NCBI GenBank assembly: GCA_963727895.1
Contig: CAVSHT010000012.1
Coordinates: 96,001 to 160,000, forward strand
Origin: an uncultured Methanosarcinaceae archaeon
GTDB taxonomy: Archaea > Halobacteriota > Methanosarcinia > Methanosarcinales > Methanosarcinaceae
DNA length: 64,000 nt
Direction of reading: 5' to 3'
Both the position numbers and the translations under genes were made by a program. Numbering within the stretch: position 1 is the first letter of the stretch; every line of letters starts with the position of its first letter. Shown in pieces: positions 1,671 through 62,894 of this stretch. The notes under the pieces were generated by a model. It was given only the letters and a program-made list of their open reading frames with translations. It did no database searches and was not told the origin of the DNA.

Positions 1671-2858
1671 ATGAATGATCAGGGGCTTTCTAAGAAGGAG
1701 ATATTTTCCTATCTGGAAAATGTAAAGTCAGAAGATACGGATTACTATAGGGTTTTAAGTTCAATGTGTACCCATCCACACAAAATTGCAGTTGAAGCTC
1801 ACAGGCTTTTTATTGAGGCTAACCTGGGTGACCTTGGACTCTTTGCAGGGGCAAGCAGGCTGGAAACTGAAGTAATCAGGATGCTAGGAAACCTTCTTCA
1901 TGCACAGTCTGTTGAATCATATTCTGGGAATTCCTATGAAAGTTCGGTTTGTGGTTATCTGACAACAGGTGGTACAGAATCCAATATTCAGGCTGTCAGG
2001 AGCATGAAAAACCTTGCTACTGCAGGCATGAGAAAATTAAGGGAAAATCCAAATATAGTCATTCCAGAATCAGCTCATTTTTCATTTGATAAAGTTGCCG
2101 ATATGATGGGCATTGAGATTAGAAGAGCCCGTTTGGATTCTGAATTCAGGGTGGATATGGAATCTGTGAAAAGTTTGATTGATGCAAATACCATAGGACT
2201 TGTAGGGATAGCAGGAAATACGGAATTCGGCCAGATAGATCCTATTGAGAAACTTGCAAAGATTGCTCTTGATAATGATATTTTTTTTCACGTCGATGCA
2301 GCTTTTGGAGGTTTTGTAATTCCATTCCTTGAGAATCCATATCCTTTTGATTTCAAAATTCCAGGTGTTACTTCCATTGCAATAGATCCTCATAAAATGG
2401 GTCTTTCTACCATTCCTTCAGGTGTCTTATTATTCAGATCTCCTTCTTTCCTTGATTCCCTCAAAGTAAGCACTCCCTACCTTACAACAAAGGCACAGTT
2501 TACTCTTACAGGTACTCGCAGTGGAGCTTCAGCTGCTGCCACATACGCTGTTATGAAATATTTAGGCTGCGAAGGATATAGAAAAAATGTACAATATTGT
2601 ATGCAGCTTACCAAAAAACTGGTTGAAGAAGCTCGAAAACTCGGTTTTGAACCTTTGATAGAACCCGTAATGAATGTAGTTGCCCTGAGAGTTCCAAGCC
2701 CCGATCTTGTTCGGAAACAACTCCTTGAAAATTTTGGATGGAATGTATCAATTACTCGTGATCCCAGATCTCTACGTTTGGTTTTAATGCCTCATAATAC
2801 TGATAAAGACATCGAAGAATTTTTAGAAGATTTGAAAAAAGTAACGGCAGAAATTTGA
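1671..2858 (+). CDS. mfnA: L-tyrosine/L-aspartate decarboxylase (PLP-dependent, group II)
   Basis: [14 protein letters not shown] and DPHKMG (PLP lysine) motifs; 395 aa. Confidence 0.92.
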
Positions 2859-3481
2859 AACTACTAAATTTAAAACTACTGATTTTTTGACCTGATTTTC
2901 TTCATCTTCTTGACTTCTCTACTTCCCTCGATTTCTTTATTTTTATTTTTATTTTTTAACTTTTTACATTTTGCTTATTTTTGCATTATATTATATTTCT
3001 TATATCTTTACATAATTATATCATCTTTATATATTTCTTACAGTTTTTGATGTGCCAGAACATGCAGCTATAACATGGAAGCAGTTATCTATAGTATTAT
3101 TACATATTATTGCCAAATAATATGTGGGAATATGTGGGTCAATTCCTTTTAGAGAAAAACTTTATACAGATATATTCAAAGGGAAAATTTGTAGAAAATT
3201 TAGGTATAAAATAGGCAGATTACTTTGAAGTTAGATTTTTTAATGAAAAGGTATAACTTAAAAGTTCATAATTTACTAAAAATATAATTATTTTAAAATC
3301 TCTTAAAAATTTAATAAGATATAATTATCTAAAATCTCTTGGAATTCATATTTAAAAACCCATATTTATAAATTCTACTTGGAAGTTCAAATTTAGAAGT
3401 TGGAATTAGTGTTTTATTCATCTTTATATATATAAATAAGTATAATAGCATTATAGAAATAAGAGTGGGAGTGCTTATTTC

Positions 3482-9410: not shown

Positions 9411-10266
9411 GGTTCCGTTGCAAAAAATCTCAGAATAAGCATGTAAATCTATAGACAATGAACAGAAGTTAAAATATTCAAGAAGATGTATCAATATTAT
9501 AGAACTATTCCAAATAATTGATTAATATATTTAGCTTCATTAAGACCAGAGTAATTTAGATTCTTGACTTGTCCTTTTTTAATCATATTCATCGCTTCAA
9601 TTCCTTTTAAAGTTTTAATAGCTGTGTTAAAAGACTGAAATCCTAACATTGGATTAACTATTCGTTTAATGGATCTATGATCTTGTTCTATAATGTTATT
9701 CAAATACTTGATTTGTCGAATGCCTACGTTTATAGGTAGTATTTTATCATTTTTCAGTTTATTTATAGCAGGTGGATAAGCTGGATTTTTATCAACTGTT
9801 ATTACTCTTGGAATTTGATTATGATTAGAATTCAAAGCTTTTTTGAAGAATCTGTTCGCTGCTTTTTGGTCTCGTTTTGCACTTAACATAAAATCAATTG
9901 TATCTCCATTTGAGTCAACTGCTCGGTAAAAATATTTCCATTTACCTTTAATTCTGATATAAGTTTCATCAACTCTCCAAGAGTCGTTTGTTGGTCTTAA
10001 ATGCCTTCTGACCTTTTTTTCAATTTCAGGTGAATATTGATGTACCCATCTCATGATAGTACTGTGATCAACTTCTACTCCCCTTTCTGCCATCATTTCC
10101 TTTAAATTTCGATAACTTAATGGATATTTTAAGTACCATCTAACATTCAATAAAATAATTTCACCCACAAAATGCTTCCATTTAAAGGGATTAGATAGCA
10201 TGTCATTATCCTTTACTTCCCTTTTATTTGATTATATCCTTAACAGATATTTTTTGCAACGGAACC
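9411..10266 (-). mobile_element. IS6-family insertion sequence, 856 bp
   Basis: Perfect 18-bp terminal IRs ggttccgttgcaaaaaat (9411-9428 and 10249-10266); no flanking direct repeat. Confidence 0.95.
9497..10201 (-). CDS. IS6-family DDE transposase (intact)
   Basis: FKWKHF, WRVDETY, TVDKNPAY and NNIIEQDHR motifs. Confidence 0.96.
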   Translation of the reverse strand: MLSNPFKWKHFVGEIILLNVRWYLKYPLSYRNLKEMMAERGVEVDHSTIMRWVHQYSPEIEKKVRRHLRPTNDSWRVDETYIRIKGKWKYFYRAVDSNGDTIDFMLSAKRDQKAANRFFKKALNSNHNQIPRVITVDKNPAYPPAINKLKNDKILPINVGIRQIKYLNNIIEQDHRSIKRIVNPMLGFQSFNTAIKTLKGIEAMNMIKKGQVKNLNYSGLNEAKYINQLFGIVL

Positions 10267-10723
10267 TAGACTTGCAGCTATTGGGATGGAAATACTTGAA
10301 AATAGAAGAATTTCAGGGGTTTAAGAGACTCCTATCTCCATTTTTTATAAGCTTTTAAATTCATGTTTTCCTAATTATATTTATTCTGTTTTATTATGAC
10401 ATAATTTTATATATGGTGAGATGTAAGAGCGTAAACGTTTAATGGGTTTTATTTTATAGAATTCCAGGACTAAACCTCTCAGGCTGGATTCATAATGAAA
10501 AAAATAGAATCTGAAGCATTTAATCCATATGCGTATAATCGCTTCGAGTGGGGAAGTGACGGATACGTCGGCAAATCAAACACAATAGATTTATTTGGAG
10601 CCACCCTAAGCCAATCCAATAAATGTATCTGAAAGCCACCTCAAAGCAAGTGCCTGAACCCGTTATTTTAAACGGGAACTATCCGACTGTTTACTAAAAC
10701 AAGATGTCACGTCAGGTGATAAA

Positions 10724-11179
10724 ATGGACCATGATACAACCCGGGATCAAAATGTAAAAGAAAACGAAACTTTTGATGGAGAATACCTCGATCTCCCAGA
10801 TATCCCCCTTCCTGAAACTGATAATGTGCTGTACTCAATTTTGAATTCGTTAAATCAGAATATTGCAGATTTTCATACCTTTGTAAAATTTAATTCCTAT
10901 CTTTCTGAAGACCATCTAAACGTTGAACTACTTAAAAGAAGCATGGGTATTCACAGGGACTTTACAGCTCTGTTTCTGCACACCAAAGAAGAGATGTTAT
11001 TTACCTATCCCGAATTTATTGAGAAAACCGAAAAGGTGCTTTTCAAGGGAAGTGTAGGTACTGACTGTATAAAATATACTAGTAAATTGTGCAGAGTAAT
11101 AAGTGATTACAAAATAGCTCTTCACAGAGAAGGATATTTGCCTGATCTTCGAAGGCAGTTACCATTGGTTGATCTTTGA
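10724..11179 (+). CDS. Hypothetical protein, 151 aa
   Basis: RBS-like aggtga just upstream; normal composition; no recognised motif. Confidence 0.65.
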   Translation: MDHDTTRDQNVKENETFDGEYLDLPDIPLPETDNVLYSILNSLNQNIADFHTFVKFNSYLSEDHLNVELLKRSMGIHRDFTALFLHTKEEMLFTYPEFIEKTEKVLFKGSVGTDCIKYTSKLCRVISDYKIALHREGYLPDLRRQLPLVDL

Positions 11180-11475
11180 TCAGCTATAACTTATTTTTTC
11201 TATAAAGTTATTTTTTAAAATTTAATTCCAGGTTTCTGCTCTTATATTTCAGATATTCTGATTCTTTGACGTGTCTAAAAACTTATAAAAACCTTCAAAA
11301 CTAATAATTTTAAGAATCAAAGCTTCTTCCAAGTTTAAATTTAATCAAATACAAAAAGAAAATTTTCTCCTATTTAAATCTATACTTTTAGTGTATTTTT
11401 TAGTACTTCTATTAATTTATATTTATTTTTCAGTACATCAATAGTTTTATATAAAAAAAAGTTATCTGAGATGCA

Positions 11476-11645
11476 AGGCATCTGTGAAAAACGGTGTCCT
11501 TAAAAAACGGTACATAAAAAACGGCATGTGAAAAACGCAAGCTTTAAAAACGGTGTTCGAAAAACGATATTTTTTAGAGTGTCAATTAAAAAACGAATTA
11601 TTGAAAAACGGATTTTTTAAAAACGGCATTTAAAAACAGATGCCT
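11476..11645 (+). ncRNA. Candidate sRNA: ten AAAAAC(G) motifs inside a 10-bp closing stem
   Basis: TATA box tttatata at 11446-11453; IR aggcatctgt (11476-11485) and acagatgcct (11636-11645); lies between convergent genes. Confidence 0.5.
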
Positions 11646-11922
11646 AATAAACCTAATGAAAATCAGTTCTTAATCTCATTCTTTTTAATTTTTTATATGT
11701 TGCTTTTTTCGATAATTTATATAAAGTTTACTGTATAACATCCATAGTAAAGCTATGAGTTATTCAGAGATTTTTATATATAAAATATGTTAGCTCACAT
11801 AGCCCAGTTTCAAACCTTAATCTTGCTATTTTTCGCCTTAGTTTTCCGTTGAAATATAATTTCAAAAAGTTATATAAATCAAAATTAATTTTTTAAGTTT
11901 AAACAACTTCAAAAAAGAAAAG

Positions 11923-11944
11923 AGACTCAGGACATCCTGAGTCT
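11923..11944. terminator. Hairpin downstream of the surface-protein pseudogene
   Basis: agactcagga-ca-tcctgagtct stem, followed on the minus strand by a T-run. Confidence 0.55.
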
Positions 11945-11970
11945 ACTTTAACATTTTACCTAAGATCTCT

Positions 11971-14184
11971 TCACTTCTTGGATATTAGGTCAATACCGTC
12001 TTCGCTCGTCGAGATTACATTGCCGTTAAGAGATGTCTTGAAAGTGTACTTGACCGTTGGGTATGTCTGCGTTGTTAGCTTATAGCCCTGCAAACTGCTC
12101 AGGGAATACTTTATGCCCAGGTAGTAAGTACCTGCAGTCAGATTGTTCGCCGTGAGCGTAACCGTGGATCCGTCGAGTGAGACATTCGCCATCGTAGCAG
12201 AGACCTTTCTGCAATTGGAATCATACAGGATTACCTGTTTAGTGTCTTGGATTGCTATGAAAGGCCAATTATTGTTGTCTTTCGACTGAGTAACTGATAC
12301 AGTCGTCGTCGATGGTCCTCCTACAGGGATTGTGATAGTGCTGTAGTAGAACATCACACCCGGAGAGACGCTTTTTATGGACTTGGTCTTACTATCGACA
12401 AGGTAGTTCGCTTGTGTTAAATTTGTAGCAGTACCAGACATGTACTGATCGCAAGTAGTTCCGGTTGGGCTATCTGACCTGTTGGTCCCCCTTGTCCATA
12501 GTAGTGGCTTGGATCCTCGTCTGAGACCTGTATATCTTCATAGTTGGCTGTTACGTTTCCTATGTTAGCATACTGTCCTGCTGTTGCAGTTCCTGTTGCT
12601 TCGTATATCCACATTTCGGATGTTTCCAGAATACCATTTGAGTTCAGATCCCCTGAAACGTATTGAGGATTAACTCCGGTTATGTTATCCGTTACAGCTA
12701 CGTTACTTAACGGTACATTTCCTGTGTTTGTAACTTTATATGTCCAGGTTACAGTTTCTCCTACTGGAATGTATGGTCCAGTTGGATCGTCTGCATCTTC
12801 TCCGTTAGTGTACTTCTCGATATTGATTGCCGGATTTCCCAACACATTCGTCGGCTGGTAATAAATATTGTTACCAGGAGTGGGATATTCAGTGATTGCA
12901 GTCACTGAAACATAATTGAGTAGATCATACAATATAGTAGGTGGAGTTGCTGAGCCTGCCTCCGGGTTCTCAGACGTATCATTGTTAGTAGGCGCTGTAA
13001 GATTAACAGTAGTGTTTATAGTGAGCGTCACTGATTGAGTGGGGTTCAATGCGCCAACATCGAAGGTGACAGTATGTAAGCTAGCATCATAACTAGACGA
13101 GATGTTTGATGTAGCTGATGCTGAAACAAAGCTTGTATTGGCATCTAACGTATCCGTGACTACAATCTCGTTTGCAACGATCAAGGGGTCATTGTTTGTC
13201 ACCACGAGACTATAATTGAGATATTGCCCCAGGTTTACAGGATCAGGTTCATCGTACTTTATCACGGAGACATCAACTTTGTTGGTGAAGAACTCTTTTA
13301 CCTGCAAGAGGGGGACTGTCTGTTGACCGGTACTTATTGCATCGTTATTTGCAGTTTCCGCGCTGATTACTTCTGTCTGCACGTTACCGCCGACACTGGC
13401 AGGGATCTGATCTTTGAGGACAACCCATATCTCAACGATCACATTATCGCCGTTATCTAGGCCCGAAATATTGAATGTGCCCTGTATCTCTTCGTTTGAT
13501 GTACCTGGATTAGCGAGCGTGTAGGTAAAAGAATCCACTTTAGCATTCTGCCCTGGATCAATGGTACCGGGATCTGCTGTATCAACAAAGGTGCAGTAAA
13601 CCATATATGCCGGATCATAACCAAAGTCATCATCTGATGTTGTTTTTGTGAGGAAATCAGTTGTGATATTTATGGCCCCGTTCTCTGAAGCCGTATTACC
13701 TTTGACCTAAATCTCCATCTCGAACGGCACGACTTGGCCAAGAGCCATGTCTTTGGGTGCAAGAGATGTCACAGCGTCAAGGTTTTTGGAACTAAAAGGT
13801 GAAGCATATGCTACAGCGTTCTGGAGAGGATCTGCCTGCCTCCCTACGGTTCCGACGGCAAGGGAAGTATATCTCCACGGGTTGGTATCAGCTTCTCATA
13901 GGTCGGTAAATATGGACCTTTGTTCAATGCAGGATCAGTAGCATACCATTTAATTGTATATGCACCACCTGCAGCCTGTGCTTCGAAAGGCACCACACTC
14001 ATTAAAACGCTCCACTTAAGATTACTATCAGCATTGCTCAGATTATAGACCGGTGCTTAGGTCTACTGAATTGTAAATTGGTGTTAACCAACTTATTCTT
14101 TATATTTGTGGCACTACATATTCTTGGCAGCAAAGCCAGCAATAGCATAGCCACAGCTATAGGATCTATAATATACTTATTCAT
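11971..14184 (-). pseudogene. Secreted/cell-surface protein with DUF11-type Ig-like repeats, disrupted
   Basis: DVSVIK..PDPV..G..LNYSLVVTN and INIEKYTNGEDAD..G..VTWTYKVTNTGNVPL repeats; signal-peptide-like remnants; frameshifts near 14005, ~13880 and ~12469; in-frame TAG at 13707-13709; higher GC than its flanks. Confidence 0.8.
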
Positions 14185-60666: not shown

Positions 60667-60862
60667 AGGTTCGATATAAAAATCGATCCCTTCTTTCAGT
60701 TTTTATATCCATAATAATCATCTATTTTAATGCAGATTTCTTCTATATAAATCTCACGAGAGTTTTTTAATATTTTTCTATATGTTTTATTTTTAAGTTT
60801 TTGATATAACCTCCAATAGAAAACTATTTATACTAAATCCTCTATTCTAAGGTTGCTTCTCA

Positions 60863-61004
60863 AGGTGTCACACGACATCTACGAGAGTGAAAAACGGGAA
60901 TTGAAAAACGAAGCTTATTAACAAAGCTTAAAGGTACCAAAAAACGGTATATCAAAAACGGATATAAAAGGGTGCCTAAAGCCGTTGTTTTTGGAACAAT
61001 GGCT
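60863..61004 (+). ncRNA. Second AAAAACG-motif unit with closing stem and 3' hairpin (sRNA or rRNA-operon upstream leader)
   Basis: BRE/TATA agaaaac-tatttata at ~60818-60832; AAAAACG x4; stem aggtgtc / ggtgcct; hairpin 60980-61004. Confidence 0.4.
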
Positions 61005-61084
61005 CTTAAAAATGGACAAGTTAAGGATTCAAAAGCACAATTCTTTTGAAATCTTTCAACTATTCTCTTTTCCCTCTTCAGGAA

Positions 61085-61419: not shown

Positions 61420-62894
<1,475 letters not shown>

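Follow-up and report, generated by a model that had tools for sequence, protein, structure and literature searches.

What is a regularly spaced row of short A-rich boxes, enclosed by an inverted repeat, doing between two convergent genes of an archaeal chromosome, and does it work as RNA or as DNA? The row lies in a 64,000-nt stretch of DNA from an uncultured Methanosarcinaceae archaeon (hereafter the window). The window's genome is represented by 3.67 Mb in 19 contigs and is 84% complete; it is assigned to Methanosarcina, since homologues of a protein encoded next to the row bear Methanosarcina names only and tRNA-Pyl is present. A preliminary description, made from the letters of the window, had read the locus as a candidate small RNA that titrates a protein through repeated motifs. 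Our analysis makes it very probable that this element, called family A below, is a functional RNA gene, and tentatively assigns a role to its boxes.

Layout of the box array

Ten boxes occupy the locus (Table 1). Nine of them read AAAAACG and the tenth, which overlaps the 3' stem arm, reads AAAAACA. The C of AAAAAC falls at positions 11492, 11508, 11522, 11536, 11551, 11565, 11594, 11609, 11624 and 11637 of the window, with spacings of 16, 14, 14, 15, 14, 29, 15, 15 and 13 nt; these are the same coordinates and the same single 29-nt gap as read before, and the gap is explained by a box-free spacer. The boxes are enclosed by a perfect 10-bp inverted repeat, and the two flanking ORFs, plus-strand 10724-11179 and minus-strand 11971-12441, converge on the locus, both in agreement with the preliminary description. 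Upstream of the array, Tandem Repeats Finder detects a promoter-like module with a period of 30 in 2.5 copies. The last copy includes a TATA box (tttatata, 11446-11453) that ends 23 nt before the 5' stem arm. The module, searched as CAGTAC[AT]TC-N5-9-T[TA]TATA, has one occurrence in the whole genome. On the other side of the array, the first T run begins 37 nt after the 3' arm.

Table 1. Coordinates, within the window, of the two box-bearing elements and associated features
Feature	Position	Strand	Remarks
P0001, 151-aa lineage-specific protein	10724..11179	+	upstream, same strand; context only
Promoter region	11378..11453	+	promoter-like module of 30 nt (AGTAC-TC...TTATAT), repeated 2.5 times
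Predicted transcription start	11476..11477	+	base of the 5' stem arm; placed from the TATA spacing
5' arm of the closing stem, aggcatctgt (AGGCATCTGT)	11477..11486	+	direct sequence
Box array	11487..11637	+	10 boxes: 9 AAAAACG and 1 AAAAACA
Box starts	11487, 11503, 11517, 11531, 11546, 11560, 11589, 11604, 11619, 11632	+	
Box-free spacer (GATATTTTTTAGAGTGTCAATTA)	11566..11588	+	explains the 29-nt double gap
3' arm of the closing stem, acagatgcct (ACAGATGCCT)	11636..11645	+	direct sequence
T5 and T6 runs	11682..11694	+	likely oligo-T termination signal
Family B	60856..61076	+	directly upstream of the rRNA operon
Family B TATA box	about 60826-60835	+	
Family B boxes AAAAACG	60890, 60904, 60940, 60954	+	14-nt pitch
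Family B terminator-like hairpin, U-rich tail	about 61025-61058	+	

The box pattern is far above chance. The window contains 24 AAAAACG, compared with 13.06 +/- 3.72 in shuffled sequences (none of 100 shuffles reaches 24), and nine of these 24 fall inside 139 nt at the family A locus. Likewise, the window holds 12 AAAAAC-N6-12-AAAAAC pairs, where 0.65 are expected and the shuffle maximum is 3; eight of the 12 belong to this locus. Within the array, Tandem Repeats Finder sees just 2.8 copies of a 15-nt unit (11589-11631), and the array is thus no plain VNTR in the window's genome. The linkers differ from one another, as had been pointed out before, and boxes are constrained relative to linkers (see below), and we therefore rejected a simple VNTR without function. 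In some species, recently expanded identical units are present. A MITE or other mobile repeat was rejected as well, because the element is single-copy in each genome and syntenic beside the same gene, with a promoter module that is unique in the genome.

Other clusters of the motif exist. A third AAAAAC cluster in the window's genome (C9:176975-177081) has spacings of 7, 13, 20 and 38 nt and was set aside as probably due to chance because of this irregularity. Of the 16 genera of the family, 8 contain tandem arrays of AAAAACG with periods of 8, 11, 13 and 16-17 nt at loci unrelated to this one, so that a general DNA-level or mutational cause fits as well as an RNA cause. One of them, an 11-nt-period AAAAACGGAAT array in the 5' UTR of a cupin gene, occurs in two genomes; seven others lack it in this UTR, and it is hence regarded as a local VNTR.

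Conservation of the element in Methanosarcinaceae

When the 5' flank of the array (11390-11500) was used as BLAST query, 31 of the genus's 34 other genomes each gave a single strong match, as did five of six genomes of a sister genus; elsewhere, the matches were short and weak. The three-box pattern is present in 29/36 other genomes of the genus, in 8 of the 16 genera of the family Methanosarcinaceae, and in none of 24 genomes from other families of the order. Statistics on the architecture were computed on 30 fetched loci. Both stem arms and the GGCATCTG core are kept in all 30, and the TATA-to-stem distance is identical in 29, which extends the earlier observation of a TATA box at start distance well beyond the window. 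Given this fixed distance, the expected archaeal start is the first base or two of the stem. The block ttttcagtacatccgtagttttatata is conserved upstream of the stem in the orthologs. At least four consecutive T occur downstream of the 3' arm, 18-23 nt away in 21/30 loci and within 75 nt in 29/30. The architecture of the gene is thereby conserved: genus and sister genus carry motif, stem and promoter spacing alike, as expected of the element first described.

The stem itself is nearly invariant. All ten pairs are Watson-Crick in 27 of the 30 loci; a U.G pair, which pairs only in plus-strand RNA, is found in two loci, and a terminal mismatch in one. In the sister genus, the stem is longer by one G-C pair. 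This near-invariance leaves family A without compensatory covariation, and the stem thus constitutes weak structural evidence.

The number of boxes varies from 4 to 37 per locus, with a total of 415 in the 30 loci. G follows AAAAAC in 385/415 boxes, and 359 of 385 intervals measure 13-16 nt, most of the others being double gaps of about 29-30 nt. Across species, the unit consensus reads AAAAACGGTATCTT[AGT]. When the window array was compared pairwise with those of four related species, 0-1 of 67 box positions had changed, versus 14-29 of 83 linker positions, a contrast that is somewhat inflated since boxes help anchor the alignments. Read at the level of sequence, these comparisons show boxes under selection while the linkers drift. 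A spacer resembling GATATTTTTTAGAGTGTCAATTA, GGTATTTTT(T)AAAGTGGCAGTTA, stands at the same place in four loci (L015, L029, L025 and L017).

Among the neighbours, the right-hand, convergent gene is not conserved between species. The sole conserved neighbour is P0001, encoded on the same strand in 25/30 loci with 81-93% identity. Its distribution follows the two element-carrying genera, where it occurs in 33/34 and 6/6 genomes, and it was found in none of 110 genomes from 14 other genera.

Transcription, predicted folding and a second box-bearing element

The RNA evidence comes from one relative, whose complete 5.75-Mb genome carries the ortholog L039, with the array at positions 1577-1886 of this locus. 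Fourteen RNA-seq runs from eight studies contain at least 89% of the words sampled from the L039 intergenic stretch. Contigs were placed on L039:1200-2250 and their depth was summed. In run X14, the array bins reach 2.8e3-2.0e4, compared with 208-340 in the flanks. In run X1, the bins reach 1.2-3.4e5 versus 319-515. These sums include contigs that can be placed at several positions of the L039 repeat (274 of 482 in X1), so that the ratio is inflated by a small factor, and not by two orders of magnitude. Two raw-read runs provided 12 and 20 reads, too few for mapping transcript ends. In both, every raw read over the array bins 1596-1847 is plus-strand, and the 250 nt upstream of the array have zero reads; in one of them, minus-strand depth is also present at the 3' end of the array (bin 1848-1883). 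The same runs contain sense reads beside a plus-strand transposase gene and over a minus-strand gene, which calibrates the strand and indicates that the L039 RNA is plus-strand. The family A ortholog thus yields abundant plus-strand RNA, in line with the transcript foreseen in the preliminary description, and the window's own organism probably expresses its copy as well.

The window RNA is predicted to fold into a terminal stem with a mostly open interior (-35.7 kcal/mol, z -3.1). The opposite strand folds comparably (z -3.4), and folding energy therefore cannot decide the strand. Averaged over the 30 orthologs, boxes have a predicted unpaired probability of 0.64, linkers of 0.44 and the stem of 0.04; the prediction for family A is accordingly one of largely single-stranded boxes. 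Neither the minimum-energy fold nor the centroid fold contains the small A-loop hairpins proposed earlier, and these are not conserved. From the CsrB/RsmZ-like layout first suggested, the conserved box array thus stands, while the presentation of the motif in hairpin loops is not supported.

A second element with the same boxes, called family B, lies in the same window (Table 1). It also carries a 5' hairpin, and about 345 nt separate its end from the 16S rRNA gene (start 61420); another TATA box is located about 30-40 nt beyond the element. A single copy of family B was found in each of 30 genomes of the genus, out of 34 others searched. Its fold has a z-score of -6.1, and compensatory changes affect 12 of the 36 pairs in its consensus structure. 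Two boxes lie in a loop closed by one of the covarying helices, GGURCC/GGYGCC, indicating that a selected RNA structure presents the boxes, at least in family B. In many genomes, some 50-100 kb lie between families A and B. Both were searched in the same 34 genomes, and the three that lack a family A match lack one for family B too; kinship alone could explain this joint absence.

What, then, would such an RNA do? The best explanation, to which we give a probability of about one half, is that family A encodes a stable non-coding RNA with a many-site decoy or scaffold role. This RNA would measure about 170 nt from stem to stem and about 205-220 nt to the first T runs. The conserved TATA promoter would start transcription at the base of the 10-bp terminal stem, and oligo-T just past the 3' arm would end it. 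The terminal stem would clamp the 5' and 3' ends together and present a long, mostly unpaired loop in which a [U]NAAAAACG[G] box recurs every 14-15 nt, ten times in all. Each box would be a functional unit that binds one common trans-acting factor, most likely a single-stranded-RNA-binding protein. If every box is a site for the same factor, one RNA binds many copies of it and would serve as a decoy or scaffold. That the factor is indeed a protein, bound multivalently by the family A RNA, seems to us just short of an even chance. The smaller family B RNA, with the same boxes and pitch, may compete for the factor, as in bacterial paired decoy RNAs.

A more ambitious version, which we hold only tentatively and consider rather doubtful as a whole, is a Csr/Crc-like titration circuit in Methanosarcina, the first in archaea, in which a global regulator that binds single-stranded RNA would be sequestered by two abundant decoys. 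The regulator would read UNAAAAACGG at a 14-15 nt pitch, on the 4-37 boxes that family A holds in a closed loop and on the 4-7 boxes of family B at the head of the rRNA operon. The capacity of the circuit would be set by box number, and the rRNA-linked copy would couple it to growth rate. In the window's 84%-complete genome, profile searches found neither CsrA (PF02599), for which control genomes gave matches, nor Hfq (PF17209), and found two matches to the LSM domain (PF01423). With a crude call of 2565 ORFs in this genome, AAAAACG is not enriched upstream of ORFs (0.189 per kb, versus 0.171 downstream and 0.183 in coding sequence), and there is thus no sign of an mRNA regulon sharing the box.

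Other readings of the array

The main rival is that the array acts as DNA. Every 14-15 bp, it would offer a high-affinity site to the abundant chromatin protein MC1 or to some other DNA-binding protein, assembled into a compact or bent nucleoprotein structure, with transcription being incidental or regulatory. According to a SELEX study (PMC3928310), Methanosarcina MC1 prefers a 15-bp site, AAAAACACAC(A/C)CCC(C/A), with a KD of about 2 nM, and touches the DNA at the A-tract and again at a distance of about 10 bp. The first six bases, AAAAAC, and the 15-bp length agree with the array unit. The agreement with the consensus given there is limited to positions 1-6: the array has G at position 7 (385/415) and G/A at position 8, where the SELEX site has A and C, and the 3' half of the unit is T-rich where that of the SELEX site is C-rich. 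In the family, 150 of 151 genomes encode MC1, the window's genome with five matches, and the occurrence of AAAAACG arrays at many unrelated loci in 8/16 genera would fit such a general factor. However, MC1 occurs in all 16 genera, including the eight without the three-box pattern, so that the phyletic test is uninformative and lends this reading no support. What speaks for RNA is that the ortholog locus yields a very abundant transcript, that the boxes of family B sit in loops closed by covarying RNA helices, and that the U.G pairs at two family A loci keep pairing only in RNA. We therefore regard the DNA reading as unlikely.

The boxes might also act as RNA on other RNAs, base-pairing with transcripts that carry CGUUUUU or CCGUUUUU, such as oligo-U 3' ends. 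Archaeal transcripts end in U runs and the boxes are predicted to be accessible, both in favour of such a sponge. The complementary sites expected of its partners were sought in the window's genome with little success: the regions after ORFs show no enrichment of CGTTTTT (0.137 per kb, versus 0.344 for the control TTTTTGC), this motif occurs in only 1 of 53 tRNA trailers, it is absent from the 16S gene of the window (no minus-strand AAAAACG at 61420-62894), and the genome contains no clustered complementary sites except the array's own opposite strand. RNA-RNA pairing is accordingly quite unlikely in our view. Read on the minus strand, the array is a series of ten CGTTTTT signals, and T5 runs are archaeal termination signals; it could hence be a polar terminator or insulator that stops convergent read-through, the plus-strand RNA being functionless. 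The convergent orientation of the neighbouring genes fits this reading, as do the minus-strand reads from the convergent gene of L039, which fade near the 3' end of the array. Nevertheless, in the window, the convergent gene has its own hairpin and T-run right after its stop (about 11913-11950), and between species the array is conserved while the right-hand gene is not. A terminator would moreover leave the fixed-distance promoter, the terminal stem, the conserved G and the high level of plus-strand RNA unexplained, and we judge it improbable, more so than RNA-RNA pairing.

Finally, the transcript might be a precursor cut into unit-length pieces that act together with P0001, in the manner of the repeat-RNA antitoxins of type III toxin-antitoxin systems. 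This reading draws on P0001 being the sole conserved neighbour, limited to the same two genera as the array, a distribution that shared descent may also explain. The protein belongs to no Pfam or NCBIfam family, and its 178 homologous matches are all Methanosarcina hypothetical proteins. Its sequence is rich in acidic residues, AlphaFold models it (pLDDT 76.7) as four bundled helices preceded by a disordered N-terminus, and a Foldseek search of this model against the PDB gave nothing at E<=0.001 and no nuclease-like structural match, all of which argue against this reading. Between the gene and the array lie 1.6-2.6 kb in the 5.75-Mb genome and in the sister genus. A family A-type array is absent from all 13 P0001 paralog loci; at two of them, the 5' UTR of a cupin gene contains a short AAAAAC array with a period of 11 nt. 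With neither a family, nor a structural match, nor arrays at paralogs, P0001 offers no handle on function. Furthermore, the locus is chromosomal and syntenic, not mobile, and known type III antitoxin repeats are far longer than units of 14-15 nt. Taken together, these points make the type III-like reading very improbable, the least probable of those considered here.

Comparison with known systems

Having weighed these readings, we compared the preferred one, a non-coding RNA with a many-site decoy or scaffold role, with described RNAs. At Rfam gathering thresholds, the whole window gave the rRNA genes only, and at permissive thresholds nothing but rRNA genes was found at family A or family B. 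A cmscan of 10500-12500 at E<=10 returned seven weak matches, of which none overlaps 11446-11645 and none is a Csr/Rsm RNA. No Rfam family thus matches the family A locus. Membership in Csr/Rsm was rejected on this ground and because the motif is AAAAACG and not GGA, the predicted fold has no conserved box hairpins and no CsrA was found in the window's 84%-complete genome; membership in the Crc family was rejected because no Hfq was found in it. The SmAP2 motif of Sulfolobus was also considered, and is unrelated to the box. In Methanosarcina papers, AAAAACG was encountered only within a casposon inverted repeat and within a guide-RNA target, and full-text searches of the literature outside the primary M. 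mazei catalogue and its supplement retrieved no description of a repeat-box RNA. The M. mazei catalogue reportedly comprises 199 intergenic sRNAs, and the transcript may be listed in it without analysis.

Like sRNA154, sRNA162 and sRNA41 of M. mazei, the family A RNA would be an intergenic small RNA of the same genus with an archaeal promoter. It differs from sRNA154 and sRNA162 in that these characterised Methanosarcina sRNAs base-pair with mRNAs (for sRNA154, according to a 2018 review, PMC5867862; for sRNA162, according to the abstract on it). The same review (PMC5867862) puts at 21% the share of intergenic sRNAs that three Methanosarcina species have in common, so that the family A locus may already be listed as an unnamed candidate. 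The words sponge, titrate and protein-binding are absent from the available text of this review of archaeal regulatory RNAs (PMC5867862), and the literature that we searched describes no archaeal protein-titrating regulatory RNA.

Taken as DNA, the array resembles the MC1 SELEX site (PMC3928310) by its 15-bp unit starting with AAAAAC, and MC1 is encoded in the window's genome; the two differ at positions 7-15, which are CGGTATCTT-type in the array and ACACACCCC-type in SELEX. If it were true that MC1 reads the boxes as DNA, the array would be the first natural high-affinity site array for this chromatin protein.

Taken as RNA, the closest likenesses are bacterial. In CrcZ and CrcY of Pseudomonas, decoys for Hfq/Crc, the boxes are A-rich and unpaired, and family A similarly offers several A-rich motifs predicted to be unpaired, ten A5C boxes in the window, with a mean predicted unpaired probability of 0.64 for boxes over the 30 orthologs. 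By contrast, the boxes described here have an invariant CG, a much higher copy number and a regular pitch, and LSM-domain proteins are the only ones of this kind found. CsrB/CsrC and RsmX/Y/Z are abundant small RNAs with many copies of one motif, often paralogous and variable in motif number; here too, there are two box-bearing elements, families A and B, and between 4 and 37 boxes. Unlike CsrB and RsmZ, which present GGA in hairpin loops, family A carries AAAAACG, predicted to be single-stranded, at a 14-15 nt pitch within one closed loop, and its host is an archaeon. Protein-titrating RNAs (Csr/Rsm, Crc, 6S) are central to bacterial physiology. Family A is a concrete, genus-wide candidate for an archaeal decoy RNA, abundantly expressed in a relative, and with the genetics of Methanosarcina, a defined motif and an rRNA-adjacent sister element, both the question of archaeal decoy RNAs and the protein that would read the boxes become directly testable.

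Genes and transposases flanking the array

On the right-hand side of the AAAAACG-box array, the hairpin followed by a T run looks like the own terminator of the convergent 156-aa gene. In the 5.75-Mb relative genome, which carries the array ortholog at locus L039, the first gene on this side of the array (2241-3074, minus strand) is, judged by eye, of low complexity, repeat-rich and comparable to the second gene on this side in the window; a protein comparison of these two minus-strand genes gave no match.

To the left, the upstream neighbour P0001 is restricted to Methanosarcina and one sister genus. Modelling predicts that it folds as a four-helix bundle preceded by a disordered acidic N-terminus. 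A second, more divergent paralog is usually present in each genome. Farther left, an IS240-type DDE transposase gene lies approximately 1.2 kb from the array. The 5.75-Mb relative has another transposase (L039, 3-1118), which separates the 151-aa gene from the array.

Features of the array's surroundings and other box-bearing elements (window coordinates unless a locus of another genome is named)
Feature	Position	Strand	Remarks
IS240-type DDE transposase	9497-10201	-	PF13610, E 5e-47
P0001, 151 aa	10724-11179	+	no family assigned
Hairpin, then T run	11913-11950	-	immediately past the convergent gene's stop codon
Second gene right of array	12417-13604	-	DUF11/DUF7507 surface-protein repeats
Family B element	60826-61076	+	conserved, structured; four AAAAACG boxes, 14-nt pitch
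AAAAACG tandem arrays of other periods	L012 (1485-1651), L087 (558-629), L013, L016, L095-L101

Box-free spacer and AAAAACG arrays elsewhere in the family

Within the array, a spacer devoid of boxes (11566-11588), which includes a U6 run, is conserved in several related species and may constitute a functional piece in its own right. Eight of the 16 genera of the family have tandem arrays of other periods (8, 11, 13, 15 and 16-17 nt) that include AAAAACG, spread over many unrelated loci, with dozens of matches in some genomes. A cupin gene carries one such array in its 5' UTR, in two genomes only.

A second box-bearing element near the rRNA operon

The second box-bearing element of the window, family B, carries its own TATA box and a terminator-like hairpin. 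The rRNA operon promoters lie directly downstream of it, the 16S gene starting at 61420. Although Methanosarcina possesses several rRNA operons, family B is present as one copy per genome.
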